Shown: positions 7,585-59,916 of the stretch, one piece after another
Numbering within the stretch: position 1 is the stretch's first letter
Layout: each line of letters starts with the position of its first letter
Assembly (NCBI GenBank): GCA_041749075.1
Contig: JBGTBY010000035.1
Coordinates: 350,268 to 414,267 of the forward strand
Direction: 5' to 3'
From: Balneolales bacterium
GTDB taxonomy: Bacteria > Bacteroidota > Rhodothermia > Balneolales > HLUCCA01
Length of the DNA stretch: 64,000 bases
Made by a program: the position numbers and the translations under genes
The notes under the pieces: generated by a model
Told to the model about the DNA's origin: nothing
Databases searched by the model: none
Seen by the model: the letters and a program-made list of their open reading frames with translations, nothing else

Positions 7585-7714
7585 CTTATATGATTCGGGT
7601 TTGCGGCTATTCCTAAAGTAGAATGTGCGGCAATCCGACCTCAATCCCAAGTTATGCTATCGTTACCTAATCTTAGGCGACAGGATACCGGACGCGGGAC
7701 CTCTTCTCTCCCCG

Positions 7715-35562: not shown

Positions 35563-37845
35563 TTGAAACGTTTCGCCACATTCGTCCTGTCATTTCCCAA
35601 ATCCATCCTCATGGGTATGGGTGTGCTGATGCTGGCGAGCTTGTACCCGGCATCGCAAATCCGCACGGATTTCAATATCGAAGCGTTTTTTCCGGATGAC
35701 GACCGCACCATCCTTGAATACCGTGAAGTGTCGGAAGAATTTGGCCGCGACGACAATGTGATCGCGGTGATGCTTGAACATCCTGAGATCCTCACAATTG
35801 AGCATCTGACACGGATCGATAGTCTAACGACCGCTCTTGGCAGGATGCAGTACGTGACGGAGATCCAAAGCCTGACCAACGCCCGTCGCCTGCAGAATGA
35901 AGAGGATAATCTGGTGATTCGTGACATCTGGAGTCCGGGTGAACAGGCTCCCTTGCTGCAAGACGTCCAAGACAATCCCTTTGTCAGTGGGATCATTATA
36001 AGTGCGGATGGACGCACCACGGCGATCTACATCACCATCGATGCAGAAGCGGATCCATACCGCATCCGAAGCGAAATCATCGCCGAGATGAACCGCATTA
36101 TCGAGCCGTATCGGTCGACCTACACCATCGGCATCACCGGCATCCCCTATTTCCGGAACACGTATGTGAACATGTTGAATGGCGAGATCCGGTTCTACAT
36201 CACGTTATCCACGTTCTTGGTGATGTTGCTACTTGGAGCGTTGTTTCAGAGCATCCGAGGTATCGTACTGCCACTTGGTGTGGTTTGGATTACGATTTTA
36301 TTCACACTCTCGTTCATGGTGATGACGGGCGGCTATTTCGAAATCCTGAGTTCCACCATTGCTCCAATACTTCTATGTGTGGGAATCAGTGATTCTGTGC
36401 ATCTGATGTCGAAATACAATGATGGTCGCATTGCCGGACTCTCGCGTCGCTCCTCCATGAAGGAAACCGTGATTGTGATGGGAAGCGCGACGTTTCTGAC
36501 GAGCGTCACCACGTTCATCGGCTTCATCACCCTGTATACCAGCAGTGTGGTGCCAATCCAGCGATTCGGATTGTATACCGCATTTGGAGTTCTGTTCGCC
36601 TTTGCGATCACCATGTTCGTCATTCCGGCTGCCTTGCCGTTTTTCAAGGACACGGTGAAGAAAGATCTCTCCCATCACAAAGTGCATCATCTCATTGGTG
36701 TGATGCTGCAAAAGCTGAATGTCTGGATCGAGCGGCATTACAAAGGTATCGTGATCGTGACATCTATCGTCGTGATACTGGTTGGAATCGGTGCCACCCG
36801 CCTGAAAGTGAACAGTTTCATTTTTGATGATGTGGGACCAGAAAACATCCTTGTGAAAGATGCAGACCGGTTTTCCGAGAAGCTGAGTCCGCCATTTCCA
36901 TTAGAACTGATCCTGAACACCGAAGAGGATAACGGGATCCTTCAGCCCGATTACATCCGTCGTTTGCTAGCGTTTGAAGCCTTTCTGGATTCCATCCCCG
37001 AAATCGCGCGCACGACATCCATCACAACCCTGCTTGCTGAAACACATCGGGTGATGCAGCCCGACGCCCCGCTGTCCGACCTTACGTTACCCGATGCCGC
37101 GCCGCGGATCGCGCAGTACATGCTCTTACTCGAAATCGCCGACCCCGACCTGCTTCCCTCCTTCACGGATTTCACCTATTCGAAGGTCCGCATCGCCGCA
37201 CAAATCGAAGACGCCGGGTCGTACCGCGTCAACGGCATCCGCCGCACCATCCGCCTGTACCTGACGGAGCATTTTCCGGAAAGTCGTCTTCAGCAATCCG
37301 GGACTAGTATCTTGGTGGCGGACCTTACAGGTAATATGGTCCGTTCGCTCACTTCCAGCATCTTGCTTGCGGTTCTGTTCATCGCGATCATCATGGCTTG
37401 GATGTTCCGAAACGGGAAACTCATTGCCTTGTCGCTCATCCCGAATCTGGTTCCGTTGCTCATCACCGCCGGTGTGATGGGTTATTTCGGCATCGACCTG
37501 AAACCATCCACGGCAGTCATTTTCACGATCGCGTTCGGAATCGCGGTGGATGACACCATCCATTATCTCGCCCGACTTCGCCTCGAGAGCTGGAAAAACA
37601 CAGATCTGCGAACGGCAGTGAGAATCACGACGGAGAAAACAGGTCGACCTATCGTGCTCACAAGTTTAATTCTTCTGATCGGGTTTGGCACGCTCATGAC
37701 GAGTGATTTCACATCCACGGTCTGGATGGGCAGCTTGGTGAGCATGACGGTCTTGGTGGCTCTGATCGCCGACGTCGTCTTCTTGCCCGCTTTGCTCTAT
37801 TGGATGAAACCCGATTTGACGACCGCATCCCAAACATCGGCGTGA
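35563..37845 (+). CDS. RND-superfamily exporter, MMPL/SSD type
   Basis: 760 aa with two 6-TM bundles, each preceded by a large periplasmic loop. GxSDSVHL-like and AVDDTIHY motifs are typical of MMPL/HpnN-like transporters. TTG start. Confidence 0.8.
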   Translation: MKRFATFVLSFPKSILMGMGVLMLASLYPASQIRTDFNIEAFFPDDDRTILEYREVSEEFGRDDNVIAVMLEHPEILTIEHLTRIDSLTTALGRMQYVTEIQSLTNARRLQNEEDNLVIRDIWSPGEQAPLLQDVQDNPFVSGIIISADGRTTAIYITIDAEADPYRIRSEIIAEMNRIIEPYRSTYTIGITGIPYFRNTYVNMLNGEIRFYITLSTFLVMLLLGALFQSIRGIVLPLGVVWITILFTLSFMVMTGGYFEILSSTIAPILLCVGISDSVHLMSKYNDGRIAGLSRRSSMKETVIVMGSATFLTSVTTFIGFITLYTSSVVPIQRFGLYTAFGVLFAFAITMFVIPAALPFFKDTVKKDLSHHKVHHLIGVMLQKLNVWIERHYKGIVIVTSIVVILVGIGATRLKVNSFIFDDVGPENILVKDADRFSEKLSPPFPLELILNTEEDNGILQPDYIRRLLAFEAFLDSIPEIARTTSITTLLAETHRVMQPDAPLSDLTLPDAAPRIAQYMLLLEIADPDLLPSFTDFTYSKVRIAAQIEDAGSYRVNGIRRTIRLYLTEHFPESRLQQSGTSILVADLTGNMVRSLTSSILLAVLFIAIIMAWMFRNGKLIALSLIPNLVPLLITAGVMGYFGIDLKPSTAVIFTIAFGIAVDDTIHYLARLRLESWKNTDLRTAVRITTEKTGRPIVLTSLILLIGFGTLMTSDFTSTVWMGSLVSMTVLVALIADVVFLPALLYWMKPDLTTASQTSA

Positions 37846-38408
37846 ATCTGCTCGGGTGTGCGATCGGCATCGATGGTGCGGAAACGATTGTTTGATGCGG
37901 CTAGTGTATCAAAGCCCTGTATCACACGGTCGTAGAAGTCATCACCCGCTTGTTCCATGCGGTCACGATGTCGGTTCTTGATGCGGGCTTGCGCCTGTTG
38001 CCGACTCAGTCGCAAATAAAAGGTGATATCCGGAATCACGCCATGCGAGGCGATCGTGTTGATCGAATGGATGTGCTCGATGGGTAGCGATTGACGTCCG
38101 TAACCCTGATAGGCCACAGTCGAATCATAAAACCTATCCAATATCACCCATTCGCCGTTTTTCATCTTGGGAATGACGTGCTCGGCGATCAATTGTGAGC
38201 GGGCGGATGAAAAGAGTAGTACTTCTGTGACCGGATTGATCGGGAATTCTGGATTCAGCAACAATCCGCGAATGACTTCCGACACTTCGGTGCCACCTGG
38301 TTCGCGATATAAGTTCGCATCGATACCTTGAAATTCGAGTCGCTGACGCAGCTGATGTATCTGCGTGGTTTTGCCACTCCCGTCAATTCCTTCGAAAGAA
38401 ATCAGCAT
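37797..38408 (-). CDS. tmk: thymidylate kinase
   Basis: FEGIDGSGKTTQ P-loop and DRF/YDS motifs. Start at MLISFEG, sharing 1 nt with the stop of the upstream gene. Confidence 0.9.
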   Translation of the reverse strand: MLISFEGIDGSGKTTQIHQLRQRLEFQGIDANLYREPGGTEVSEVIRGLLLNPEFPINPVTEVLLFSSARSQLIAEHVIPKMKNGEWVILDRFYDSTVAYQGYGRQSLPIEHIHSINTIASHGVIPDITFYLRLSRQQAQARIKNRHRDRMEQAGDDFYDRVIQGFDTLAASNNRFRTIDADRTPEQIHADVWDAVVKSGFIQ

Positions 38409-38989
38409 CAGAGACCTAATTGTTTGGGTTCTTTCGGCAAGATCATCGATAGAACGATGTATGCCAAAACCGGGCTTCCCGATCCGATGAAGGTGAACAC
38501 CACGAACAGGATACGGACAATGGTCGGGTCCATTCCCAGATATTGGGCCATGCCACCACAAACACCGGCAAGCTTGCGATTCGTGCGCGATTTGAAGAGT
38601 CTTTTTTTCTTGAGCAAGCCGTATTCATCCAACTTGCCATCTTCGATCGAAATCGTTTTGGGAGTCTTTTTCTTCTTGCGTTTCGGACGCGAAAAGGTGC
38701 CCAAACCGACCAATAAGACGAGGAACGATCCGAAAACACTGATTAAGACCAGCAATTCACTGAAATCCGTATCGAATGGCATGAAAATCTGCATCACTGA
38801 AATCGCGCAGACTGCCAACACGCCCAATCCGATCATGGTGACGGGATTCATCAGGGTGTTCGGTTTCTTCGTCTCTACCGCATCTTCCTCGATGTACTGT
38901 TGCAGCGTCGATTCCAGATCGCGCGAACTCACATCATACACCGATTCGGATTCGCTGGAGTAGTCGTTAGGTCGTGTTTTTTCAGCCAT
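38408..38989 (-). CDS. PspC-domain membrane protein
   Basis: C-terminal KLAGVCGGMAQYLGMDPTIVRILFVV...LAYIVLSMILP is the PspC domain. Two TM helices lie upstream. Confidence 0.75.
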   Translation of the reverse strand: MAEKTRPNDYSSESESVYDVSSRDLESTLQQYIEEDAVETKKPNTLMNPVTMIGLGVLAVCAISVMQIFMPFDTDFSELLVLISVFGSFLVLLVGLGTFSRPKRKKKKTPKTISIEDGKLDEYGLLKKKRLFKSRTNRKLAGVCGGMAQYLGMDPTIVRILFVVFTFIGSGSPVLAYIVLSMILPKEPKQLGL

Positions 38990-39197
38990 TCAGCAAATAT
39001 AGGGAGTTGCGGGATGCGAAATGCGTGAAGTTCCTTCGCAAAAACTTAGTATGCAAAGCTTTTAGTGACTATTTGCTCATAGTATTCACATAAACGCTAC
39101 ATCATTCGATTAGCAAGAGTGTGACCAACCAAATTTAGGTTTTTGAAATAGGCATCAATATTTTAATACACCTTGCATAATCCCTATTTCATTATAT

Positions 39198-39872
39198 ATG
39201 AACCGAATAATTGCACTTACCCTGTTATTTGTTTTGACGTTTATTTTCGGATGCTCGACTGGAGGGTTAACCGATATTGATGGAAACAGATATAAAACAG
39301 TTCAGATTGGCAATCAGCTATGGATGGCGGAAAATCTTAAGACGACCCGTTACAGCAATGGTGATGAAATCCCAAATGTGATGGGTACTGGCGAGTGGGG
39401 TAGATTAAAAACAGCAGCATGGGCGAATTACAATAGAAACTCTTCACACAACAGGGTGTACGGCAAATTATATAACTGGTATGCTGTGGAAGACAGCCGA
39501 GGTTTGTGCCCATCAGGATGGCATGTGCCAACTGATGAAGAGTGGACTGCTTTGACTGATTTCCTAGGCGTAGGTGCCGGAGGGCAGATGAAAATCGTCG
39601 GTACGAAATATTGGGAATTACCACATGTAGGAGCTACAAATGAAAGCGGCTTCTCAGCCCTCCCAGGAGGATACCGTTATAAGGACGGTTCTTTTAACCT
39701 AATGGGTAATAATGGATTCTGGTGGAGTTCCACCGAAAGTAGTATTAATGGTGCCAAATACCGGTTCCTGAGTACCCACTTTGATTATATACTTCAAAAT
39801 TACTTATTTGATTTACATACCATTGGCGCAAATAAAGGAAATGGCTTCTCCGTTCGTTGCCTTCTGGATTGA
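39198..39872 (+). CDS. FISUMP-domain lipoprotein (Fibrobacter succinogenes major paralogous domain)
   Basis: Lipobox FIFGC. DIDGNRYKTVQIGNQLWMAENL, GKLYNWYA, CPSGWHVPTDEEW, GFSALPGGYR, FWWSST and GFSVRCL match the TIGR02145-type pattern. Confidence 0.8.
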   Translation: MNRIIALTLLFVLTFIFGCSTGGLTDIDGNRYKTVQIGNQLWMAENLKTTRYSNGDEIPNVMGTGEWGRLKTAAWANYNRNSSHNRVYGKLYNWYAVEDSRGLCPSGWHVPTDEEWTALTDFLGVGAGGQMKIVGTKYWELPHVGATNESGFSALPGGYRYKDGSFNLMGNNGFWWSSTESSINGAKYRFLSTHFDYILQNYLFDLHTIGANKGNGFSVRCLLD

Positions 39873-39995
39873 CATGAGGTCGCTTTGTCTTCAGCCCGCG
39901 TTCGAGTAGGCGGGCGCGGGAAAACGGTTGAGCCATGTTGTGCACGTCATACTGTTTTGTGGTTGCAGTTATAGATGAATTTCAATACAGCCAGA

Positions 39996-40661
39996 TCATA
40001 TGATTTTCCTAGTGCAATCTTCATTATAGCCAGTGATCCAAATCTCCATAAATCTAGTGTCAAATAATTGGGTGTGATGCTCTGCGATTAGCTTCTCTAT
40101 TACATCCGCAAAGGATAATCCATGAGTTCTATTTGCATCAAGCAGTAATATTAGGTTGCCTTTTCTATGCAACGGTATTGAGCTAGCCTTATTATCAATT
40201 GATGTCATTAATAACTTACAAGCATCGTCAATAGATAATTGAAGTGACAAATACTTATTATAAGCAAGTTCTTTCATCTTTTGGGAATCAGAAAAAGCGC
40301 GAGTTACCTGAATATATAACTCCTCATCTCCATCTACTGCAATACAATCAACGTTCTCAATTAAGTTCCCAACTTTATCAATACATCTATCAAACTGATT
40401 TAAATCATAATTTAGTTGGTGTTCTCTATTGTATGCATTTATAAAATTTTGGCAGGTTCTTTTTGTATCGCTTTCTCCTGGCCGGGTACCACCCCTAATC
40501 GTTATGCATAATTCACGCTTTACTATTTTGGATTCGTTCGCAATACCATCTCTTGGAGTTTCAGATTGGGATATTTCTTTGTTGTATTTATCAGTATGTT
40601 TAAACATACTATGTTCTCTTGCCTCAATAGATTCCGTGAACTTTAATAAGATTTTTTTCAT
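39996..40661 (-). CDS. hypothetical protein (221 aa), island orphan
   Basis: Long open frame in AT-rich DNA. No confident motif. VDCIAVDGDEELYIQVTR is only vaguely PD-(D/E)xK-like. Confidence 0.5.
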   Translation of the reverse strand: MKKILLKFTESIEAREHSMFKHTDKYNKEISQSETPRDGIANESKIVKRELCITIRGGTRPGESDTKRTCQNFINAYNREHQLNYDLNQFDRCIDKVGNLIENVDCIAVDGDEELYIQVTRAFSDSQKMKELAYNKYLSLQLSIDDACKLLMTSIDNKASSIPLHRKGNLILLLDANRTHGLSFADVIEKLIAEHHTQLFDTRFMEIWITGYNEDCTRKII

Positions 40662-41025
40662 TTATTTATTGTTAGGTCAAGACAAATTAAGAGGCTTTGA
40701 ACGGATAAGTTTGAGCAAGATATGATAATTATCAACCTTCCAATGATTGAACTGAAACTCTCACTCTTTCTGGTGCAGGTTGTACGTGTTCGGGTGCATG
40801 CCCCTGAATTTGATAAGCCGTGTTTTTCATAACCTCAGAACAATTCGATCCCGTTAATGTGGCTGGCAGCTCGAACAAATTCATCGACTCCTTTATCGAC
40901 TTGCAGATGTTCAACGTAACACAAGTCGACAAGTCCTTTGAAGGAGTGGCATCCTTCGCTGTAGATGACGCTATTCAGTCTGATTTTGCCTCAAATAACG
41001 CAATGGAGCATATTTCTGGGTACAG

Positions 41026-41295
41026 TTAAACAAACAAATATTGAATTGGGATATCCTTTTCGACAACTCCATTATGTAGTAATCGAACATCAGCGATATC
41101 ATTGTTAGAACTCAATGAAATTACTTCACCATGAATGTCGATTTCATACACATTCACAAAGTCATCAAACTCAGTAAATGGTTCAACACGGAATGTTTTA
41201 TAATAAACATTGTCACCAAGAGATAGCTTGGGCGAGTTACTTTTAGTACTCTTTGAAGCGAGATAATTAAATAGATCAACTTTCTTTATTCTCAT
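41026..41295 (-). CDS. hypothetical protein (89 aa), island orphan
   Basis: Open frame starting 2 nt after the stop of the upstream 133-aa gene. No motif recognised. Confidence 0.45.
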   Translation of the reverse strand: MRIKKVDLFNYLASKSTKSNSPKLSLGDNVYYKTFRVEPFTEFDDFVNVYEIDIHGEVISLSSNNDIADVRLLHNGVVEKDIPIQYLFV

Positions 41296-41297
41296 AT

Positions 41298-41699
41298 TTA
41301 CTCCTTAATAACTTTTGCGCTTACAAGTCTGTTTGGAATATCATCAATCCAATGTTCTCCGTCTTTGACAGGTCCGATTAAATATAGAGTGTCGGCATTC
41401 GTATCATCTTTGATAACTCGATACCAGTCTTTATTTAAAGAAATACCATCACTCTCTTCAGCATAGCGATAGACATCGATTCCACCGACTTGATTTGGAA
41501 TTGTCATATTACCATCTGCTCTTGGGTTTGTTACTGCCGCTGAACCACTAGCGACAACAATACATAGTTTATCCTTTGGTATGCTTCTTAAGATATTGGG
41601 AAGTGCTTTATTTTCGAGAATAACTGGTTTCCAATCTAAGGGTGCAAACTTTTGAAATTCTTGAAGTGAAATTCTCTTTTTTTTTAGTGTCATGTGCAA
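41298..41699 (-). CDS. hypothetical protein (133 aa), island orphan
   Basis: Open frame 48 nt downstream of the 307-aa gene. No motif recognised. Confidence 0.5.
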   Translation of the reverse strand: MHMTLKKKRISLQEFQKFAPLDWKPVILENKALPNILRSIPKDKLCIVVASGSAAVTNPRADGNMTIPNQVGGIDVYRYAEESDGISLNKDWYRVIKDDTNADTLYLIGPVKDGEHWIDDIPNRLVSAKVIKE

Positions 41700-41747
41700 C
41701 TAATATTATATATTATCACTATGCGCATTAGCAAATTAATAACATCA

Positions 41748-42671
41748 TTATCTATCAAGCTGAGGCAGAGTAGCTGCAATACGATTTGTGAGTTTTATTT
41801 TTAGATCTTCCGGTGTGTCCCAAATAATGTGATTGTATTGACGAGTATCAAAATGAAGTTTTTTGGCGTGATTTTTTCGACATGTCCATATTACCGGAAT
41901 TCCTAATCCCATTGCGAATCCCGCCTCAAAATATACCCCACCACGATGTCCGGTAAAATCCGCTACAAGTAGGCCTGAACGCCTTATTTCTGCAATGATA
42001 CGATCATCAATCTTATCGTTGTGTTCTTGAAAATCTATTCTATGAGGTTTGAATCTACTTTGTTCTAATGCAGGAATAATGCCTTCTCTATACGCGTCGA
42101 GTAGACTCGCATCAAACCACATTGCAACAAATGCTTGATTGGATTTTATTATTGATTTACCTAGCTCCAACACCCTTTCCCAACCCTTCAAGCCCAATAA
42201 ATAATCCGTTTCGTTCCCTTTCCATTCAATTAGACCTAATTCCCGTGCCTTATCTATATAGTATTTAAACTCTCTTTGATCACGGGCATATACAATTGGG
42301 AAATCATTATTTATGTCTAAATGAACTGCCTCACCTGGAATCTTTGTTTTTCTATGTATATGCTCCAATAGTAGGTTAATTGATTCGAAAGGATCACTTG
42401 GAACACGAGCTAGTTTTATCAATAATTCAACAGTATTGGTCAGAAGTAGTGAATTATCTCCTTGCTCGTACCGATTGCGAATTACTGCAGAAATTAGCCA
42501 ACGGGGGCCATATTGTTCGATATTTCTATCTACTATAGCCCCTAATGTGCGGCTGAGTTGGAAATTGCCGCATCGAGGACACTTGATAGTAATGACATCT
42601 TTTCCATCGCTACTAAAGTGCTTGGCAATATTCTCTAAATGGCATATGGGACAGTTGTTTTTTTCCATCAA
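41748..42671 (-). CDS. Zn-ribbon / winged-helix-like / NDT-like (nucleoside 2-deoxyribosyltransferase-superfamily) Rossmann protein
   Basis: CPICH...CPRCG at the N-terminus. Mid-region ELGLIEW...YLLGLKGWERVLEL. The C-terminal domain QAFVAMWFD...IIAEIRRSGLLVADFTGHRGGVYFEAGFAMGLGIPVIW follows the beta1-(A/P)F ... D/E-x-G-(F/Y)-A-x-G-x-G-x-P-V pattern of the NDT/TIR-like flavodoxin-fold superfamily. Confidence 0.6.
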   Translation of the reverse strand: MMEKNNCPICHLENIAKHFSSDGKDVITIKCPRCGNFQLSRTLGAIVDRNIEQYGPRWLISAVIRNRYEQGDNSLLLTNTVELLIKLARVPSDPFESINLLLEHIHRKTKIPGEAVHLDINNDFPIVYARDQREFKYYIDKARELGLIEWKGNETDYLLGLKGWERVLELGKSIIKSNQAFVAMWFDASLLDAYREGIIPALEQSRFKPHRIDFQEHNDKIDDRIIAEIRRSGLLVADFTGHRGGVYFEAGFAMGLGIPVIWTCRKNHAKKLHFDTRQYNHIIWDTPEDLKIKLTNRIAATLPQLDR

Positions 42672-42754
42672 TGCACTAGGTAAATGGAACTATTAATCTG
42701 TTCAAAGGGCAAAGATAAAAAGATCAATTTGGTACGACTCAGCTGTTTTCGACA

Positions 42755-43066
42755 TTAGGGTTTGCATCGAATCATAATGCTTTTTGTATTGAATGCGCCG
42801 TAGGTAACAAAAGCCCCTTGATTATTAGCGGTTCCGGTACCAAAAGGTACAATTTGTCCCTCACGGTTAAGCAAATCATATCCTTTAGCACCACAAATTT
42901 CGCCTGCCTTTTCAAAACAAACATTAATACCCACGGCAGCGCCATCACAACTTATACTATGCCCCAGGCTACCATCAGGTAGATATGTCTGTTTACTTGT
43001 GGCACATCCAAAAAGAATCGCGAGAAGGAGAATGGAGAATGATATTTGCTGTCTAATAGTGTGCAT
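42755..43066 (-). CDS. small Cys-containing lipoprotein (hypothetical)
   Basis: Start at MHTIRQQ. Lipobox ILFGC. Four further Cys residues. About 100 aa. Confidence 0.5.
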   Translation of the reverse strand: MHTIRQQISFSILLLAILFGCATSKQTYLPDGSLGHSISCDGAAVGINVCFEKAGEICGAKGYDLLNREGQIVPFGTGTANNQGAFVTYGAFNTKSIMIRCKP

Positions 43067-43178
43067 TTCATATCCTTGTTTCTTGTTTAAGCTTAACAAC
43101 TACTCAACCTATAGTACTGCGGTGTGTAGAGAATGTACTCCGTTCAAAACTAACTCGCAATTTCTGAGCCTAATCTTC

Positions 43179-43225
43179 AGTACTTGTTCTTCCTTGAGTA
43201 CTTGTTCTTCCCCGAGTACTAGTTC
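43179..43225. repeat. 18-bp tandem repeat, about 2.6 copies (AGTACTTGTTCTTCCYYG)
   Basis: Units at 43179-43196 and 43197-43214, plus a partial third that runs into the stop codon of the MTHFS gene. Marks the right edge of the AT-rich island. Confidence 0.8.
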
Positions 43226-43787
43226 ACAAATACGGATTAAACACCCCACTTTCCGTAATCAGCACATCCATGGGCACATCGTGCGGATCATGGGGAAGCT
43301 GGTCGACCCAACACGCATCCGGCAGCAGTCCGACTTTGATTCCCGGTGTGCCTTGCAGCATCCGGTCATAGAATCCGGCGCCATACCCCAGCCGGAAGCC
43401 TTGTTTGTCGGCCCCTAGCAAGGGCACGATCCAATGATCGACATCGGACGACGACACAATTGCCCCTCCGATCGGTTCTTCGATGCCGAACCTGTTCACT
43501 TGCATCGGCATGTCCGGATTCCAGACCACCAATTCCATCGAACCAAGATGAGAGTCCACGATCCGAGGCACAACTACCTTCACACCCGAGCTCACAAAAA
43601 ATTCCAACAAATCGCGGGTTTCGATTTCTCCGACGGCCGTTTTCGCTAAATATCCATGCACGCATAGCGGACGACGTTCCAACAGCCAATCGCGTGTGTT
43701 CGCGAGAATGCGCTTGGTCACATCCGCATCCACAGAGTTTCTTATGATTTTTAATTCATTGCGCCAGTGTGATTTATCCATCATCAA
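43224..43787 (-). CDS. 5-formyltetrahydrofolate cyclo-ligase
   Basis: 187 aa with VVPRI and GYGAGFYDR motifs of the MTHFS family. Confidence 0.8.
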   Translation of the reverse strand: MMMDKSHWRNELKIIRNSVDADVTKRILANTRDWLLERRPLCVHGYLAKTAVGEIETRDLLEFFVSSGVKVVVPRIVDSHLGSMELVVWNPDMPMQVNRFGIEEPIGGAIVSSSDVDHWIVPLLGADKQGFRLGYGAGFYDRMLQGTPGIKVGLLPDACWVDQLPHDPHDVPMDVLITESGVFNPYL

Positions 43788-45358
43788 TTGCCGATGTCAA
43801 ATAGGTGATGTTCTGTTAAATCTGCTTTGGCGAAGACCTCAATCAGCCGGTCCCACACATCCAAGCCATGCCGATTCATCACATGGATCATCGCCCATTC
43901 GCGCTCTTGCAGATTTCCGTTCGGGAACAAGGCTTCGCGGATCTGATGCGCCCGGCGGAGTTTCGTTTCCTCTTTCTGTTTCGTGGCGCGAACCAGCTTC
44001 TGCTTCAATTTCTCCAAGGCATTCTGCTGTTCTTTGAGAACACTTTCTGCGGATGCGACCAAGGTCGGATCGATGTCCACCACAAACGCTCCTTTCGAGG
44101 CATGAATCGCTTCCAGTTCATCCTTCCAGGTCTGCACGAACGCATCCACATCGGGGGCGTCGGATGAGCGCATCACGGCCGCTTCCACATCTTCGCTACG
44201 TCCGTGATAGTCACGGATTGCCAATGTCGATTCATCCAGATATCGACGGATGTTCGGCTCGATCAACGTTGCCGACACCCGAGGCAAAATCACCGGCATC
44301 GACCGACCCATCGCCTCATACAACGTTTTCATTTGGGCGTAGTAGGCCACTTCTCCAGGTCCACCCACATACGCGAGTGTCGGCAGCAAGGCATCTTGCA
44401 GAATCGGACGCAGAAACACATTCGGGGAAAACCGCTCCGGATTCGTTCGGATGCGGGAAATGACGTCATCCGTGATCGCATCAATGCGCACGCGCCCTTT
44501 CAGCGGATCATGTTCGAACAACAAGGTCTCCCCCACCAAAGCCTGCTGATGAAACACCTTCCCGATCGCCTCACTCTGCGTCTGAAGCACATCCCTTACC
44601 TCATTCCATCGCTCGGCATACTGCAGCAATGTGGGCTGAAGCAAGGTCTTGAAAGATTTTGGCGTGGATGCGGCCAATACTAGGCCATGTTTCGAAAACA
44701 ATTTGGTCACCAACTCCCCAAACGCTTGCGGATGCATTGTATCTGGCGGTTTCGAGCCATACGCTTGGCGCAGCAGTCCCATCACATCGTCATGATGCAG
44801 CGACGGTGTCAGCGCTTCATCCACCGCATCTAGCAATCGAGACACATCCGCACCGATAGGCATATATCCGGCCGCATGAGGCGCATTCGACCCGGGTTTG
44901 AGGGTATCCGAAAACCATTGTCCTTTGGATGGAAATCCGATCGAAGAAATCTCATCGACATCACTGTCCTCATCCCCCATCCAAAACACCGGAATCACCG
45001 GTTTTCCGGTCGTGGCTTCGGTTTTTCGGGCTTGCACGATCGCTGTCATGATCTTATACATCGTGAACAAGGGTCCGCCGAGAACGGTCAACTGCTGACC
45101 CGTCACAATCACCATCGCATCCTTATCGTGCAATCGATCGATGTTCCGAACCGCTTCGGGATGTGGCTCAAACGGTGAATTGTATTCTTCAAGGGCGGAT
45201 GCGAGAGCGTCACGGTTCCCATCCCATTCAAAGTGGGATGCGGCCTTGGTCAAAGTATCCGGCGCAAGAGGAAAATGAGGATAAAAGGGCGCGAGGGATG
45301 CATCACCCGATGTGAACGCGGTAAACAGGCGACTGAACGGTAGCTCTGAAAACACCAC
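43784..45358 (-). CDS. bshC: bacillithiol biosynthesis cysteine-adding enzyme
   Basis: 524 aa. FLRPILQDALLPTLAYVGGPGEVAYYAQ and the overall layout match the BshC (DUF2317) family as I recall it. Confidence 0.7.
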   Translation of the reverse strand: MVFSELPFSRLFTAFTSGDASLAPFYPHFPLAPDTLTKAASHFEWDGNRDALASALEEYNSPFEPHPEAVRNIDRLHDKDAMVIVTGQQLTVLGGPLFTMYKIMTAIVQARKTEATTGKPVIPVFWMGDEDSDVDEISSIGFPSKGQWFSDTLKPGSNAPHAAGYMPIGADVSRLLDAVDEALTPSLHHDDVMGLLRQAYGSKPPDTMHPQAFGELVTKLFSKHGLVLAASTPKSFKTLLQPTLLQYAERWNEVRDVLQTQSEAIGKVFHQQALVGETLLFEHDPLKGRVRIDAITDDVISRIRTNPERFSPNVFLRPILQDALLPTLAYVGGPGEVAYYAQMKTLYEAMGRSMPVILPRVSATLIEPNIRRYLDESTLAIRDYHGRSEDVEAAVMRSSDAPDVDAFVQTWKDELEAIHASKGAFVVDIDPTLVASAESVLKEQQNALEKLKQKLVRATKQKEETKLRRAHQIREALFPNGNLQEREWAMIHVMNRHGLDVWDRLIEVFAKADLTEHHLFDIGN

Positions 45359-45942
45359 TACCCTTTCAATTTGTTCAGCTCATCGCGAATTTTGGCGGCA
45401 CGCTCGTAATCTTCCGCTGCGATGGCCGATTGCAATTGTTTCTCCAAAGTAGACACCCGGGAATCCCCTTCCGGCGTTTCTTTTACTGTGGTGGACATCT
45501 CCACAGAATGCTCCGGCGCACCTTCGATTTTGGCTTCGGACGTGATGCCGGCTTCATCCAAAATAACCGATGAGACAAAAATAGATGCATCAAAACGGAT
45601 CGCTAGGGCGATCGCATCGCTCGGACGAGCGTCGAGTTCCATGTCTTGTCCGTCGGCTTCGAGAGTCACTTGTGCGAAAAAGGTGCCGTCACGAAGTTCA
45701 TTGATCAAAATGGATTTCACATAGGAACCGAAACCTTGGATCACGCTGCGAAGCAGATCGTGGGTCATGGGTCGGGGCGGCTTGATGCGCTCGAGCTCCA
45801 AGGCGATGGCTTGGGCCTCAAAGGTTCCGATGATGATGGGCAGCCGCCGACTTCCGTCGATCTCATTGAGAATGAGGGCGTAAGCGCCACCACTGCTGGG
45901 GCTCGTGGAGAGCCCTAAAATGTCCATCTGAATGCGTTCCAA
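45358..45942 (-). CDS. bifunctional nuclease (DUF151) with a C-terminal UVR motif
   Basis: LPIIIG..EA.AI...L......RPMTHDL pattern of BFN/DUF151, and a C-terminal EDYERAAKIRDEL UvrB/C-type motif. Confidence 0.75.
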   Translation of the reverse strand: MERIQMDILGLSTSPSSGGAYALILNEIDGSRRLPIIIGTFEAQAIALELERIKPPRPMTHDLLRSVIQGFGSYVKSILINELRDGTFFAQVTLEADGQDMELDARPSDAIALAIRFDASIFVSSVILDEAGITSEAKIEGAPEHSVEMSTTVKETPEGDSRVSTLEKQLQSAIAAEDYERAAKIRDELNKLKG

Positions 45943-46025
45943 AACGATAGCTGACGGGATAAGTGAAGCGGATAAAGGAACTTGAATCTAACCTTTTTTT
46001 CAGAGCCTTTAAACTGTTTCCTTGT

Positions 46026-46054
46026 TTGACATTCTAGGGGGTTCCCCCTAATTT
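46026..46054 (+). promoter_or_regulatory. sigma70-like promoter of nuoA with a palindrome in the spacer
   Basis: TTGACA (46026-46031), a 17-nt spacer, then TAATTT (46049-46054), 25 nt before the nuoA ATG. The perfect palindrome TAGGGGGTTCCCCCTA (46035-46050) fills the spacer. Confidence 0.4.
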
Positions 46055-46078
46055 TAGGCTTCTTTTTAAAGCGAACAC

Positions 46079-46453
46079 ATGTTTGAATTATACTTCCCCA
46101 TTGCCGTTCTCGCGGTCGTTGCTTTTGTGTTGAGTTTGTTGCTGATGTTCCTGTCCGAAATCATCGGTCCGAAACGTCCCAACAAGATCAAACTCTCTCC
46201 TTACGAAAGCGGGATGGATCCTTATGGGCAAGCCCGGGACCGCTATTCTGTATCATTTTATCTCGTCGCCGTCGAGTTCATCGTGTTCGATTTGGAAGTG
46301 GTTTTCATCTACCCCTGGGCTGTCCGTTATTTGGAGCTGCCTGTTGAAACGTTTTGGGCGATGGCGGTATTCATAGCCGTATTGCTGCTCGGTTTGGTCT
46401 ACACCTTGAAGAAAGGTACCCTCGAATGGGATTCACAAACTTCTTTATCCTGA
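46079..46453 (+). CDS. nuoA: NADH-quinone oxidoreductase subunit A
   Basis: 124 aa, 3 TM, with PYESG and FDLE motifs. Confidence 0.9.
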
Positions 46454-46457
46454 TTTC

Positions 46458-46943
46458 ATGTCCTATCAACAACAATTGAACGACCAGGGCTTCCTCACCA
46501 CCAGTGTGGACGCCTTGGTGAACTGGAGCCGTTCGAACGCCGTTTGGCCGATGCCGATGGGCCTAGCCTGTTGCGCCATCGAAATGATGGCCTTCGCCGG
46601 ACCCAAGTACGACGCCTCCCGTTTCGGCTCCGAAGTGTTCCGCTTCTCCCCTCGCCAAAGCGATCTGATGATCGTGGCCGGATGGTGCACCTATAAGATG
46701 TCGCATGCCATCCGCCGTATCTGGGATCAGATGCCGGATCCGAAGTGGTGCATCGCCATGGGCGCGTGCGCATCTACTGGCGGTATGCACCGCTGTTATG
46801 GCGTGGTTCAGGGCATCGATAACTTCTTACCTGTGGATATCTATGTGAGCGGATGTCCGCCACGTCCGGAGACTTTGATCAACGCATTGATCCAGATTCA
46901 AGGCAAAATCAAGGAATATCCTACAACCGCACTCGACGCATGA
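46458..46943 (+). CDS. nuoB: NADH-quinone oxidoreductase subunit B
   Basis: [10 protein letters not shown] and GACASTGG / SGCPPRPE Fe-S motifs. Confidence 0.95.
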
Positions 46944-47437
46944 GCACCTTCCTTCCCCTATTGGATGAATTGACCGGCACGTTCGGCAGCGCCATCGAAG
47001 AGATTTCGGTTCATTCCGGCGACACGTTCGTCCGCGTGCATCGCGATTCGGTCCATAAGATTTTGAGTCACCTCAAAACGAAGCACAAATTCAGTTACTT
47101 GTCGGATCTGCTCGGAATCGACCGATTCACCTCTGAAGACCGATTCGAAGTGGCCTATAACTTGGTTTCCTTGGCCGAGCAAACTCGGATCTTCATCAAG
47201 ACCCGCGTCACAGAAGAGCATCCGGTGCTTCCTACGGCAACGAATATCTGGGAAGGCGCCAACTGGAACGAGCGCGAAGTCTATGATATGTTCGGCATCC
47301 GGTTCGAGGGACATCCCGACCTTCGCCGCATCTACATGCCTGAAGATTTCAAGCATTTCCCGCTTCGCAAAGAATTTCCCCTTCTCGGCATTCCCGGTTC
47401 GATCGAGCTGCCAAACACCACTCCCGATCCGGATTAA
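46940..47437 (+). CDS. nuoC: NADH-quinone oxidoreductase subunit C
   Basis: [25 protein letters not shown] motif. Start at MSTFLPL, in an ATGA overlap with nuoB. Confidence 0.9.
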
Positions 47438-55679: not shown

Positions 55680-57809
55680 ATGCCCCGCCACCTATTCCTG
55701 CTCCTCGCTCTATTTCTTTCCCATTGCAGCCAGCCGGTCGAGTTCAAGCGGGATAGTCCGACGGATCCTCAATCCGATACCTATTCTCCGGATAAGCCAA
55801 GAAATCTTGCATTGTCGTTCAACACGGCCAAGCTGAATCGCTTGGCTTGGCAAATCAGTGAACTATCGTTCGACAGCATACTCATCGAGCGCAAGACAAC
55901 CCTTGATGATGACTTCGTGCGCATCGCATCCATCGCGAAGAACGTTACGCAATTCGTGGATACGACGGGCTTCATGACCTCTCCGATGTCCTATCGTGTG
56001 GCGAGCGTATATCGGCGCGACGGAAAGGAATTCATCACCTACAGTGATAGCGTGGATGTTGAGTTTGGTGCCATCGGTAAACCGAATGTAACCTACAACA
56101 CGGCGAATTATCAGATCACAACGATTGTAGCAAGCGCATGGAAATCCAATTTTAAGGCTGAATACTGGGTCAAATCCCATCCCGATTCGAGTTTTCGACT
56201 TCTATCGGTTCAACCCGGCAGTGCAAGTGTGTACACGCAGACAGTACCCTTCAAGCAAGATGTCCTTCACATGGATGTCGCGGTCGTCTATGTGTTGGGC
56301 GATGACACGTACCGAATGGTAATCGACAGCACCGTTCGTACCGTTGCTGTTCACACACCCGCATCTGTGTCCATCGACCCGATGACCGAAGCCTCTGGTC
56401 GATTGAATTGGACCAATCCGTTCGATTTTCATGAAGAGATCTTGGTTCGAATCAATGATACGGAATGGGTGCTACCGAAATCCGCCACATCGCTCACCTT
56501 GCCACGATATTTCAGAAGCGGAATAGTGTACTCGGTATCGGTTCGATATCGCCGAGGGGCTGAGTTCGGAGCTGAAACCTTTTTCTCGAAAGGATTCACC
56601 ATCCAACCGCCGACTTTGACATATGACGGTCCCACTTATCCGAATGTCACCTTTCGAACAGTGAGCACGACGGCAGCGAACTCATCCTATGTACTCGGTG
56701 AATATGTTGTCTTGGAAGCGAGCCGAGACATGGGACCGTTTATCCCTCTCGACTCGGTTAAGATCACATCCACAAGTCATTCGTTCGATGTGGCGGGGAT
56801 GCTGGATTCATTGTCTACCTACTGTTTCCGTGCTCGGACTTTGACATCTGCTCCATCAGCCGTTATTTCGATTCGAAATAAACTGATGTATGGAACCCGA
56901 TCTGAGTCGCTGGTTCCGATGTTTAACAGGGTGGTTCGTTTTTCCCCATATGATGATCGATATCAAGGTTATAACGCACAGGACCAGGCCGGCATATATG
57001 ACCTTTTGAGCGGTAATCAGTTGCTCACCGTTCCAGAACCGTCTGATGAAAATAATGGATTTACAAAAAATGGACATTTCATAGCTCGTATAGGCGTGAC
57101 AGGAACGTCATCTGTTTATACGACTCTTCGCCGCTACGATGGCACAGGTTCCATACTTGGTGAATTCACAATACCAGCATACAGATATCATCTGGGACAC
57201 TATGATGATGTCATATATGTAAACACTATCAACTGGAACATTGAACGATATCACATGCCCACTGGCACAACATCAGTGCTTTCAACGGGCATGCCTCAAT
57301 ACGAAATTGCAAGTTATGCCAAGGATAACGAGCATTTGGTGGTTCAATCGGGTACACGAGTTGTCACATTCACTCATTCAGAGACTGGCAACTATGAGCT
57401 CAAATCCAATCGTATTCATGGCGAACTTTATAGAGAAGTACATGCCATTTACCTGTCAGACAATCACATCCAGTTTAAGGATGATCGCTCAAACATACAT
57501 GTCATTGAAATCGAGTCCGGTTCAGTGATGGCTTATCCTAAATACCCTTTAACTCATGCAACGCACCTATCTGGATTCGAATGGATCTTTTTTAACGATA
57601 CCTATGCGGTAATCAAAGATATCCGAATGACTGATTTTACTTTGGTATACTTCCCAGCGGTAACAGTCGAATATCGGGCTCAGGCTGCAAAAATTCGATT
57701 TAGCGATGGTAACATGGATATGTTCATCTTTAGATACTCCCGTCAACAAGAAACACATTCACACCGTCTCCTGTGGCTGATCAGACGGAATTTCTGGGTA
57801 GCTGAGTAG
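55680..57809 (+). CDS. tandem-paralog lipoprotein 1 (FN3-like repeats plus an uncharacterised C-terminal module)
   Basis: Leader MPRHLFLLLALFLSHC, then SQPVEFKRDSPTDPQSD. FN3-like segments (P.NL...N.LAW...FDSILIERK...YRVASVY). About 300 aa of beta-rich C-terminal module ending in FWVAE. Confidence 0.75.
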   Translation: MPRHLFLLLALFLSHCSQPVEFKRDSPTDPQSDTYSPDKPRNLALSFNTAKLNRLAWQISELSFDSILIERKTTLDDDFVRIASIAKNVTQFVDTTGFMTSPMSYRVASVYRRDGKEFITYSDSVDVEFGAIGKPNVTYNTANYQITTIVASAWKSNFKAEYWVKSHPDSSFRLLSVQPGSASVYTQTVPFKQDVLHMDVAVVYVLGDDTYRMVIDSTVRTVAVHTPASVSIDPMTEASGRLNWTNPFDFHEEILVRINDTEWVLPKSATSLTLPRYFRSGIVYSVSVRYRRGAEFGAETFFSKGFTIQPPTLTYDGPTYPNVTFRTVSTTAANSSYVLGEYVVLEASRDMGPFIPLDSVKITSTSHSFDVAGMLDSLSTYCFRARTLTSAPSAVISIRNKLMYGTRSESLVPMFNRVVRFSPYDDRYQGYNAQDQAGIYDLLSGNQLLTVPEPSDENNGFTKNGHFIARIGVTGTSSVYTTLRRYDGTGSILGEFTIPAYRYHLGHYDDVIYVNTINWNIERYHMPTGTTSVLSTGMPQYEIASYAKDNEHLVVQSGTRVVTFTHSETGNYELKSNRIHGELYREVHAIYLSDNHIQFKDDRSNIHVIEIESGSVMAYPKYPLTHATHLSGFEWIFFNDTYAVIKDIRMTDFTLVYFPAVTVEYRAQAAKIRFSDGNMDMFIFRYSRQQETHSHRLLWLIRRNFWVAE

Positions 57810-57810
57810 T

Positions 57811-59916
57811 ATGATGCCCCGCCACCTATTCCTGCTCCTCGCACTACTTCTTACCCAATGCAGCCAGCCCGTCGAGTTCAAGCGGGATAGTCCGACGGAT
57901 CCTCAATCCGACAAGTATGCTCCTTCAAAGCCACGCAATTTCGTTTTATCGTTCGATACCAACAAGAGGAACAGGCTTGCTTGGCGGGTGAACGAGTTCA
58001 CGTTCGACAGCATTCTCATCGAGCGGAAAACCACCCGTGAGAATGAGTTCATCCGGTTGGCCACCATCCCGAAGAATCTTGCTTCGTATGTGGACACGTC
58101 CGGTTTCATGACCTATCCCATGTCGTATCGTGTAGGAAGTCTGTACCGTCGTGATGGGAAGGATTTCATCACGTACAGCGATACGCTCAGTGTCGATTTC
58201 GGGACCATCGGAAAACCGGAGGTGTTTTACCACCTGACCAATTTCGCGCTGACATCACGAGTCTTCAGCACGTGGAAAGCGAATTTCAAGACGGAGTACT
58301 GGGTCAAATCCCATCCCGATTCGAGTTTTCGTCGCATATCCATTCAAAACGGAACCACAGGTTTCTATTCGCAGAGCATCCCTTTCCGTCAGGGTTTATA
58401 TGGCATAGACGTAGCGGTGGTGTATTTGATGGGGAATGATGATTTCAGAGCGATCATCGACAGCACCGTAACCCCATTGACCATCGCCTATCCGCTTGCG
58501 TTGGGTGTGGATCCGATGAATGAGGCCTCCGGTCAAGTGAATTGGGTGAATCCTGTAGATTCGTACGACGACATTTTGGTTCGGATCAACAACGATGAAT
58601 GGGTGATGCCGCCATCCGCCACATCGCTCACCTTGCCACGCTATTTCAAAAGCGGGATTCCCTATGAGATTACGGTGCGATACCGTGTGGGTAGCACGCT
58701 TTTTTCGGGATCTACCATCATCAAAGAATACATCATCCCACCACCAACGCTCAGCTACGGATTGCCGGCCGAATCAACGATCCGATTAGAAGCGAACAGC
58801 ATCAGCGATTTGGGGGAATTCATCGTGTTGGAAGAGAGTCAGAACATGGGTCCGTTCACGACTGTTGATTCGGTCCTCATCGAATCGTCAACACACTCGT
58901 TTGATGTGACCGATCTCGACACGTTGTCCACGTATCGGTTCCGCGCACGGACGTCGACCTCCCAACCCTCCGCGGTCATCGATGTGAGTCGTGGGGTGTC
59001 GTACGCATTGAGACCATGGGATAGTGGAACCCAATCAAACCGTTTGGCTGTTTTTTCGGATATCGACGACCGATACCTCGGCTACGATGCGAGCAATTCC
59101 ATGGGAATGTATGATTTGGCCACATCCGCGCGATTGTTCACCATCCCCACCATCCCGAACACGGCCCCATCCGGATTCAGCAACGATGGACACTTCATCG
59201 CCCGACTCAGTCAAACCAGCACCACCGCCACGTTCCGCAGATACGATGCGGCGGGAACACCACTTGGTGATTTCACGATTCCTGGGTATCGGTATCATAT
59301 CGGTCGGCATGAGGATGTGATTTATATCGATCCTTTAAAAAGCACCATCGAGCGGTACCATATGCCTACGGGCGCAACGACGGTCATCATGACTGGAATT
59401 CCCGCAGGTCAGATAGGCTACTTCGGCGCGGATGAGGCCCATCTCGTGGTCAAAATCGGCACGCGGTTCATTTTGTTTTCTTATTCCGAGACGGAAGGAT
59501 ATCAGCTCGAATCGAATCGGATATTGAATGAGCTGTCGGGCATCCCCTATTCATTGCAGCTGACGTCATCACATATCATCATGGCGATCCGGAGCCAAGT
59601 TATCCATTACATCGATATGGCAAGCGGATCGGTTCAGTCATTTGACATCAGCGCGCTTCCGATGTCGTTGAATCATATTTCCGAGTATGAATGGGTCTTC
59701 TTCAATGGAGATCTGACCGTGATCAAAGATATCCGGATGTCGACCGATATCCGGATACCGTTCACACCTACATCCGGCGTTTTCAGTGCGCAAATGTCCA
59801 AAGTCCGGCATCGGAACGGGTTTGTGGACATCTTCATGTACCGGCAGTCGAACAACTCGAGCAATCCGAACCAGATCATCTGGGTACGGAAGAAAGAGTA
59901 TTGGGTGGCTGAGTAG
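57811..59916 (+). CDS. tandem-paralog lipoprotein 2
   Basis: The ATGATG start lies 1 nt after the stop of paralog 1. Same architecture, with leader MMPRHLFLLLALLLTQC. Ends in YWVAE. Confidence 0.75.
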   Translation: MMPRHLFLLLALLLTQCSQPVEFKRDSPTDPQSDKYAPSKPRNFVLSFDTNKRNRLAWRVNEFTFDSILIERKTTRENEFIRLATIPKNLASYVDTSGFMTYPMSYRVGSLYRRDGKDFITYSDTLSVDFGTIGKPEVFYHLTNFALTSRVFSTWKANFKTEYWVKSHPDSSFRRISIQNGTTGFYSQSIPFRQGLYGIDVAVVYLMGNDDFRAIIDSTVTPLTIAYPLALGVDPMNEASGQVNWVNPVDSYDDILVRINNDEWVMPPSATSLTLPRYFKSGIPYEITVRYRVGSTLFSGSTIIKEYIIPPPTLSYGLPAESTIRLEANSISDLGEFIVLEESQNMGPFTTVDSVLIESSTHSFDVTDLDTLSTYRFRARTSTSQPSAVIDVSRGVSYALRPWDSGTQSNRLAVFSDIDDRYLGYDASNSMGMYDLATSARLFTIPTIPNTAPSGFSNDGHFIARLSQTSTTATFRRYDAAGTPLGDFTIPGYRYHIGRHEDVIYIDPLKSTIERYHMPTGATTVIMTGIPAGQIGYFGADEAHLVVKIGTRFILFSYSETEGYQLESNRILNELSGIPYSLQLTSSHIIMAIRSQVIHYIDMASGSVQSFDISALPMSLNHISEYEWVFFNGDLTVIKDIRMSTDIRIPFTPTSGVFSAQMSKVRHRNGFVDIFMYRQSNNSSNPNQIIWVRKKEYWVAE

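Follow-up and report, generated by a model that had tools for sequence, protein, structure and literature searches.

A candidate single-polypeptide conflict module combining a Zn-ribbon, a winged helix-turn-helix and an NDT-like domain in a low-GC island of a Balneolales genome

Contig JBGTBY010000035.1 of a Balneolales bacterium (NCBI GenBank assembly GCA_041749075.1) contains, in the stretch of 64,000 nucleotides from position 350,268 to 414,267 that was analyzed here and is referred to as the window, an AT-rich island with four open reading frames (ORFs) lying in one direction on the minus strand. The ORF listing gives products of 307 aa (41748-42671), 133 aa (41298-41699), 89 aa (41026-41295) and 221 aa (39996-40661), which we will henceforth call p307, p133, p89 and p221. 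In this order, they are separated by spacers of 48 nt, 2 nt and 364 nt. The first-pass annotation, which was made from the letters alone, had combined the four genes into one candidate defence-like or toxin-like cassette. Its description of gene number, direction, lengths, spacers and AT-rich setting was confirmed by the ORF listing and the GC content. Its idea of a compact defence-like module is upheld for p307 alone, given the homology of this protein to ThsI-like effectors and the mobile contexts of its family, and is not upheld for the four-gene cassette, which has no counterpart in 102 loci. We estimate at roughly 55% the probability that p307 is a self-contained sensor-effector conflict module, consisting of one polypeptide and residing in a horizontally acquired island of unrelated genes. 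The features on which this reading depends are the following.

38990-43223: low-GC island, 4,234 bp long and carrying six genes, inserted between PspC (38408-38989) and 5-formyltetrahydrofolate (5-FTHF) cyclo-ligase (43224-43787)
41748-42671, minus strand: p307 (probably 306 aa, ATG at 42668), with a Zn-ribbon, a helical region, a winged helix-turn-helix (wHTH) and a predicted N-glycosidase domain resembling nucleoside 2'-deoxyribosyltransferase (NDT) and DNPH1
42552-42671, minus strand: Zn-ribbon of p307, residues 1-40, with four Cys (C7, C10, C31 and C34) and a three-stranded ribbon in the AlphaFold2 (AF2) model
Residues 41-108 of p307, minus strand: helical region in the AF2 model
42156-42302, minus strand: wHTH of p307, residues 124-172, with AF2 elements H124-127, H132-144, E148-151, E153-159 and H161-172
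41763-42146, minus strand: NDT/DNPH1-fold (Rossmannoid) domain of p307, residues 176-303 (179-301 in the AF2 model)
41925-41927, minus strand: codon for the predicted catalytic nucleophile, Glu249 of the FEAG motif; sequence DFTGHRGGVYFEAGFAMG
41298-41699, minus strand: p133 (probably 131 aa, ATG at 41693), a rare small protein with four homologues
41026-41295, minus strand: p89, 2 nt downstream of p133, member of a tiny family
40662-41025, no strand: non-coding gap of 364 nt with flat codon-position GC, separating p221 from the three upstream genes
39996-40661, minus strand: p221, an orphan ORF longer than any ORF in 500 simulations

The GC content per kb is 0.36-0.39 across 40-43 kb compared with ~0.52 in the flanks, and the four minus-strand ORFs individually have values of 0.32-0.39. 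Querying metagenomes with the neighbouring BshC protein returned 21 related contigs, of which at least 14 keep the order nuoB-nuoA-p194-BshC-FTHF ligase-PspC-Tmk-RND. Because FTHF ligase and PspC adjoin each other in at least 14 related contigs, with gaps of 6 nt (L131) and 54 nt (L113), and lie 4,234 bp apart in the window, the segment 38990-43223 is an insertion. Att-like direct repeats, a tRNA and an integrase were looked for at its borders and not found, and an Rfam scan of 38-44 kb at E ≤ 1 returned no family. Public gene calls start p307 at an internal ATG, yielding 306 aa, and shorten p133 likewise to 131 aa.

The first-pass reading of p307 as a Zn-ribbon protein with an NDT-like Rossmannoid domain and a Glu in a FEAG motif is borne out by the AF2 model (predicted local distance difference test, pLDDT, 86.8), by Foldseek and by an alignment of 28 family members (A1). 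Within A1, C31 and C34 of the Zn-ribbon are invariant and C7 and C10 are at least 90% conserved, while the wHTH contains an invariant G163-W164 pair. D238, E249 and G251 are invariant in 28/28 sequences, the nucleophile-Glu motif D-x-G...E-x-G thus being present. The C-terminal half as a whole is strongly conserved, with the stretches QAFVAMWF, HN(E/D)KI, ADFTGxRGGVYFEAGFAxGLG and HFDTRQYNHIxW. The Glu249 motif presumably aligns with the Glu motif of DNPH1 and NDT, and the beta1 motif AFVAMWF is not glycine-rich, unlike the phosphate-binding loop of DNPH1. In LlNDT, E98 has been named as catalytic (bioRxiv 10.1101/2023.08.16.553469).

Structural comparison places the C-terminal domain among N-glycosidic bond enzymes. 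The top Foldseek matches in the PDB (4kxl, 8pqt, 4jen and 4fyh) all have a probability of 1.00 and TMt values of 0.6-0.73. The best matches are DNPH1/Rcl, NDT and CMP N-glycosidases (BcmB/MilB), with BcmB itself among them, and not canonical TIR domains. These enzymes lack the additional N-terminal module of 175 residues that p307 possesses, and the distribution of p307 is mobile and patchy instead of metabolic. Structural matches in BFVD are phage proteins annotated as 'CMP/hydroxymethyl CMP hydrolase' and NDT proteins.

Sequence profiles point in a similar direction. The Pfam family PF05014 (Nuc_deoxyrib_tr) matches residues 196-269 with 25.6 bits, below its gathering cut-off of 28.8, the domain being a divergent branch and not a canonical NDT; PF05014 matches are precomputed for many p307 homologues, and the Zn-ribbon gives weak Zn_ribbon matches. 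PADLOC assigns residues 211-289 to PDLC00733, the CBASS 'Effector TIR' (1e-10), and PHROGs returns phrog_16139 (1e-48) and phrog_3634 (1e-15), both annotated as of unknown function. NCBIfam contains no match for the C-terminal domain, the TIR models PF13676, PF08937 and PF10137 do not match p307 at E ≤ 1, and the p307 profile, run against PDB sequences, retrieved chance Zn-ribbon matches only and no solved relative. Among the names given to homologues are 'PadR-family regulator' (one protein, JGI) and 'nucleoside 2-deoxyribosyltransferase' (PGAP). Literature searches retrieved no paper describing the Zn-ribbon-wHTH-NDT-like architecture.

The p307 family is large and widely dispersed. A protein search gave 7,601 matches among 8,000 candidates scored, and the best 120 of these are mostly full-length proteins of ~300 aa with 45-63% identity; organisms named among these 120 include Bacteroidota, Acidobacteriota, Rhodothermales and Asgard archaea. 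A genome scan identified relatives in at least 583 of 185,579 species genomes, covering many bacterial phyla as well as archaea, and the family comprises thousands of clusters at 90% identity. Genomic context was evaluated in 102 loci, consisting of 80 loci from the genome scan and 22 viral contigs from IMG/VR. When the p307-family gene is compared with DNA 3 kb or more distant, its GC content is the lower of the two in 57 of 58 loci (median difference -8.4 points, Wilcoxon 5e-11). The dip amounts to at least 5 points in 38 loci, and in 20 of these the patch of low GC comprises this gene only. Together, the systematic dip and the gene-only patches suggest a self-sufficient single gene that moves horizontally.

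Upstream neighbours in this set are mixed, including components of restriction-modification (RM) systems (Methylase_S, Eco57I, MmeI), a STALD/ThsA-like protein, a transposase and many metabolic enzymes. Ten neighbours are tightly linked, overlapping the p307-family gene or lying within 12 nt of it. Five of them encode Schlafen/AlbA_2, an Eco57I methyltransferase, SMC_N/AAA_15/AAA_21, HsdS and an AAA ATPase (raw count), the remainder being one transposase, two housekeeping and two unknown genes. The closest homologue (63% identity) adjoins an AAA_15/AAA_21 ATPase gene. Genes with HsdR, HsdM and HsdS domains flank p307 relatives in three distinct groups of IMG/VR loci, and other IMG/VR contigs with relatives carry portal and terminase genes. 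Bacillus mycoides megaplasmids also carry full-length family members, which bear the PGAP name 'nucleoside 2-deoxyribosyltransferase', in the company of integrase and recombinase genes and genes of prophage remnants. A distant relative, the 259-aa SpyM3_0974 of Streptococcus prophage 315.2 (L134:3884-4663), has an NDT-like domain with 33% identity over 89 aa and is located between the repressor and cro in the int/repressor (lysogeny) orientation. Genes similar to SpyM3_0974 occur in 14 Streptococcus prophage records.

The closest link to a known immune system is to Thoeris. In hhalign, the p307 family aligns with the ThsI-like domain alignment (A6) at a probability of 96.6% and E 5e-10, over A1 columns 180-279. 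This ThsI-like set derives from plasmid relatives of an NDT-like domain found beside a p89 homologue (contig L085, described below), which are proteins of ~410 aa with a C-terminal TPR-S region, flanked by ThsB-type TIR genes. Such TIR-flanked loci are present on Pediococcus damnosus pL21533-4 (L136:2884-5351) and Pseudomonas pA7J1 (L137:2896-4542); one of the two adjoins RM methylases and the other a RelB/YafQ toxin-antitoxin pair. ThsI, the effector of type VIII Thoeris, carries the annotation CMP hydrolase plus TPR, and the TIR proteins associated with it are reported to make cyclic ADP-ribose (cADPR) on infection, which is hypothesised to activate ThsI (bioRxiv 10.64898/2025.12.03.692087). 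The plasmid loci match the type VIII Thoeris layout, and it is by this layout, not by the sequences of the preprint, that we liken their products to ThsI. The C-terminal domain of p307 is homologous to their N-terminal domain, with a common D...NP/GG..YE.G core that includes the Glu. The domain is N-terminal and joined to TPR-S in the ThsI-like proteins, whereas in p307 it is C-terminal and accompanied by a Zn-ribbon and wHTH in place of TPR-S, and pairwise identity is only ~27%. No TIR, SIR2, STALD or Macro gene is present in the island, and the 64-kb window contains no second NDT/TIR-like ORF.

Other systems share parts of this arrangement. The NDT-like effector of Retron Ec86 (Eco1) has a catalytic Glu and causes abortive infection by depleting nucleotides or adenine derivatives (bioRxiv 10.1101/2023.08.16.553469). 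It joins an NDT-fold domain to a nucleic-acid-binding lobe, to which the N-terminal half of p307 would correspond. Nevertheless, p307 does not belong to a type II retron by gene content, as no reverse transcriptase-like ORF lies in 36-47 kb and Rfam detects no non-coding RNA in 38-44 kb; retron effector chains are neither among sequence matches of p307 in the PDB nor among its top 50 Foldseek matches. Swarozyc/NIR (DUF4062) proteins are single-gene, TIR-like NADases with an HTH/winged-helix domain that senses a phage protein, and one member of this DUF4062/NIR/Swarozyc group was first annotated as 'CMP hydrolase'. They resemble p307 in having a glycosidase domain of the TIR/NDT superfamily, a catalytic Glu and an HTH/winged auxiliary domain within one polypeptide, and they differ from it in domain order; the Zn-ribbon is peculiar to p307, and PF13271 (DUF4062) does not match p307 at E ≤ 1. 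An architecture with an N-terminal sensor and a C-terminal toxin, NDT included, has been proposed for Abi proteins (PMC3710099). AbiJ-NTD fusions of this type share with p307 a variable N-terminal recognition module and a C-terminal enzymatic toxin, the N-terminal part being AbiJ-NTD instead of the Zn-ribbon/wHTH of p307. Neither a CD-NTase nor a pyrimidine cyclase is found among the island proteins by PADLOC or Pfam, as would be expected for CBASS or Pycsar. PrrC-like genes are embedded in type I RM operons, offering an analogy to those p307 homologues that directly follow HsdS or lie among type I RM genes.

Whether p133, p89 and p221 accompany p307 elsewhere was evaluated in the 102 loci, and in none of them are relatives of the three located near the p307 relative (0/102; tblastn, and profile hidden Markov models (HMMs) or phmmer on six-frame translations). 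Searches by tblastn with p133, p89, p221 and also p114, a further island gene introduced below, found nothing in p307-family loci, nor did p133 and p89 profile HMMs and p221 phmmer applied to six-frame translations of 112 loci. When the neighbours of 78 anchors were clustered, no family recurred at positions -4 to +4. In the nearest relative with a visible downstream flank, the 59%-identical homologue, a convergent gene lies 1 nt past the stop; the contigs of the 63%-identical homologue end 55 nt past the gene. As partner loci and recurring neighbours are both lacking, p221 is unique, and p133 and p89 are rare, the four genes are not a recurrent cassette. The first-pass annotation had named co-occurrence of the 133-, 89- and 221-aa proteins with p307 homologues as a check, and the outcome is negative in 102/102 loci. 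It had also pointed to homologues in conserved housekeeping contexts without the partner genes as evidence to the contrary. The partners are missing throughout, but the contexts turned out to be variable and not conserved housekeeping ones, and the defence-like idea therefore survives for p307 alone.

A chance-ORF control was performed with 500 first-order Markov, composition-matched simulations of the island. The longest simulated ORF (maximum of 500 runs) has 193 codons, fewer than the 221 codons of p221. ORFs of at least 133 codons appear in 31/500 simulations and ORFs of at least 89 codons in 319/500, so that the lengths of p133 and p89 are not significant. The status of these two as genes rests instead on their homologues and on a codon-position pattern of GC1>GC2≥GC3, which is found in all four ORFs, while the 364-nt gap is flat. 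This gap has no Rfam match and no stable structure (RNA folding z-score -0.45). Scans for promoters and terminators scored no higher than expected from shuffled sequence, and promoters of the host may be of a non-sigma-70 kind.

The four homologues of p133 have 45-63% identity to it, with 41 invariant columns. They lie on short contigs without relatives of p307 or p89; after one of them comes a PhdYefM/ParE pair, and after another an unrelated protein of 134 aa with a hydrophobic stretch at its end. The AF2 model of p133, built from 5 sequences, has a pLDDT of 60 and no Foldseek match at E<0.1, and PDB profile, viral and plasmid searches were all empty. The contig of the closest homologue (L081; ENA ERZ23510489) contains three copies of a short element at about 208-462, 733-891 and 1653-1808, seen as fragments of ORFs that share '...YLGPLCAGSL'. 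As its copies flank the p133-like gene and the PhdYefM/ParE pair, this element may be of the repetitive extragenic palindromic (REP) or miniature inverted-repeat transposable element (MITE) kind.

For p89, phmmer against 1.84 billion representatives yielded two real homologues, P0128 and P0130. A third candidate, the S1-repeat protein P0129 (E 2e-4), is marginal and unproven as a homologue and was not counted. P0128 is 37% identical to p89 and overlaps by 4 nt the stop of a gene for a 272-aa NDT-like protein (L085:79-1160, Logan SRR21285602), of which the N-terminal 135 residues are homologous to the C-terminal domain of p307 (BLASTP 1e-8; domain HMM E 2.5e-13). By eye only, the C-terminus of the 272-aa protein is wHTH-like, the domain order being the reverse of that in p307. 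Proteins of the p89 type may be functionally linked to NDT-like effectors. P0130 (65 aa; L087:2251-10022 and L088) is located near an HTH_3 protein, a GmrSD type IV restriction enzyme, a NOV_C protein and unknown genes, with no NDT-like gene around it in L087/L088. It looks truncated or frameshifted; a second tblastn segment, corresponding to p89 residues 75-88, lies downstream at L087:4118-4159. Viral and plasmid searches with p89 were empty. Homologues of p133 are not followed by p89 homologues, nor are p89 homologues preceded by p133 homologues, and a reading of the pair as a type II toxin-antitoxin system finds neither family matches nor conserved pairing across genomes. With their 2-nt spacer, p133 and p89 probably form a separate small operon of rare cargo genes of mobile genetic elements.

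Among 5.8 billion proteins, p221 matches only itself, being unique to this genome, and phage records, PDB sequences, Pfam, PADLOC and PHROGs contain no significant match. It is probably a separate transcription unit. An assignment to Avs3b of AVAST type 3 was considered and rejected, the score being 19.5 bits against a cut-off of 200 (NCBIfam E=7.6e-4) and PADLOC giving no match; a gene for a STAND NTPase, the Avs3a-type partner, is not found in the island. The earlier statement that only the first of the four proteins has recognisable parts holds, apart from this marginal NCBIfam match.

From left to right, the six genes of the island are a FISUMP lipoprotein gene on the plus strand, followed by p221, p89, p133, p307 and p114, all on the minus strand. 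The two outer genes are as follows.

39198-39872, plus strand: gene for a FISUMP (Fib_succ_major) lipoprotein, leftmost in the island, Pfam PF09603 5e-46, GC 0.43
42755-43099, minus strand: p114, lipoprotein-like, 114 aa, 83 nt upstream of p307 and the fifth co-directional gene, with the lipobox LFGC

p114 matches phrog_5685 (6e-15) and is 41% identical to small lipoproteins of the P22-like Salmonella phages L, ST64T and SPN9CC. Judged by this homology, it is a phage-moron-type gene, residing in the same island as p307. An 18-nt tandem duplication (CTTCAGTACTTGTTCTTC / CTTGAGTACTTGTTCTTC) is located at 43175-43210, in the intergenic region between p114 and FTHF ligase at the right island border. 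Over 35563-47437, the nearest relatives (contigs L113-L131) are only 52-90% identical per protein, indicating that the host has no close relative in the scanned metagenome collection. Elsewhere in the window, two lipoprotein-like paralogues, 709 and 701 aa long, are encoded in tandem at 55680-59916 on the plus strand; their N-termini are near-identical (MPRHLFLLLAL...CSQPVEFKRDSPTDPQSD), and a GC dip at 57-58 kb covers part of the pair. A 180-aa ORF at 7108-7650 on the minus strand, lipoprotein-like by eye with a hydrophobic N-terminal stretch followed by a Cys, lies within a local GC dip (0.445, 7-8 kb) beside an ORF that, also by eye, reads like a response regulator.

Several observations weigh against p307 as a self-contained conflict module. 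Its invariant Glu would suit any NDT-fold enzyme, salvage and modification enzymes included, and a Zn-ribbon combined with a wHTH could equally indicate a transcription factor. Many neighbours of p307 homologues are ordinary housekeeping genes, only ~4 of 37 low-GC island mates match PADLOC models (raw count), and neither PADLOC 2.0 nor NCBIfam 20.0 includes a model dedicated to the family. Moreover, co-transcription of p307, p133 and p89 is compatible with the 48-nt and 2-nt spacers and with the fact that no terminator was found, and the translational coupling of a p89 homologue to another gene of NDT-like and wHTH-like character (L085) suggests that p89 may be no random passenger. If so, p307, p133 and p89, with or without p221, could make up a lineage-specific defence or toxin-antitoxin cassette, in which p89 might serve, for example, as inhibitor or adaptor and the partners evolve too fast to be recognised. 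The co-direction of the genes, their close spacing without a predicted terminator, their common low GC and codon-position pattern, and an NDT-like gene immediately upstream in two of three independent p89-family loci (the 4-nt overlap in L085 included) are in line with such a unit. However, partners escape detection in all 102 p307-family loci even by six-frame profile HMMs, the 20/38 loci where the patch is the gene alone leave no room for them, and the 59%-identical homologue has a convergent gene 1 nt past its stop. In addition, p133 homologues exist without p307 or p89, the p89 homologue of L087/L088 has no NDT-like gene nearby, and p221 is unique and 364 nt away. We therefore regard this cassette as unlikely; on the best reading, the island genes are an accidental assortment, with p133, p89 and p221 as rare or unique cargo that are not partners of p307.

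It is similarly improbable, in our view, that p307 serves the mobile element itself, be it as a counter-defence enzyme against nucleotide signals (cADPR-type or cyclic), as a phage or plasmid enzyme of nucleotide-pool or DNA modification, or as an addiction toxin. The occurrence of the family on plasmids and in viral contigs beside portal and terminase genes would fit, and so would the matches to PHROG families 16139 and 3634, the annotation of the best viral structural matches as CMP/hydroxymethyl-CMP hydrolase and NDT, and the phage-type lipoprotein p114 in the same island. Most loci from genome assemblies, however, show a solitary gene among host genes and not inside phages, positions directly after RM genes and the lysogeny orientation in a prophage are typical of host or prophage defence sites, and the homology points to an immune effector domain. 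Even less credit is due to p307 as a housekeeping DNA-binding regulator or enzyme, whose NDT-like domain would sense or salvage nucleosides in an island without conflict function. The PGAP and JGI names, PF05014 as the sole Pfam domain match and the many metabolic neighbours agree with this explanation, but it is at odds with a patchy spread over at least 583/185,579 species genomes from many phyla and archaea, with the systematically anomalous GC and with the lack of a conserved neighbour or regulon; PF05014 also stays under its gathering cut-off, and the profile is closer to CBASS TIR and ThsI-like effector domains.

Read as a self-contained conflict module, p307 is best described as an effector of the NDT/TIR superfamily that is connected to a new sensor. 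A sensory and autoinhibitory part, binding an invader nucleic acid or protein cue, would be made up of the Zn-ribbon, helical region and wHTH, and the NDT/DNPH1-fold domain would be the effector, held inactive until this cue is perceived. Its release would probably involve dimerisation or oligomerisation, as NDT-fold enzymes do. Glu249 could then cleave the N-glycosidic bond of an essential, abundant nucleotide, with NAD+ as the favoured candidate and (d)NMP or adenine nucleotides as the alternative. The predicted outcome is growth arrest of the infected cell, that is, abortive infection. While the analysis shows the gene structure, the insertion, the fold, the conserved residues, the homology to the ThsI-like domain, the lack of conserved partners and the mobile, RM-adjacent contexts, the defence role, the trigger, the substrate and cue sensing by the N-terminal half are inferred from them.

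More tentatively, and with less confidence than we place in p307 itself as a conflict module, the Zn-ribbon-wHTH-NDT-like family as a whole might represent an unrecognised and very widespread single-gene abortive-infection system, in which the effector domain of type VIII Thoeris is wired to a nucleic-acid or protein sensor and not to a TIR signal, with p89-type proteins acting as dedicated modulators (inhibitor or adaptor) of NDT-like effectors. Such modulators would explain why p89-type genes occur downstream of two unrelated NDT-like genes. For the annotation of similar loci, a co-occurrence test should come before any reading of co-directional ORFans in a low-GC island as one system, and the label 'nucleoside 2-deoxyribosyltransferase' on these ~300-aa proteins is probably misleading. 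If the proposal is true, the family would be a common, compact and phylogenetically very broad addition to the defences that deplete nucleotides or NAD+. It would imply that TIR signalling is dispensable for triggering an effector domain of the ThsI type, and p307 would provide a simple one-protein model for how NDT-fold enzymes switch on.

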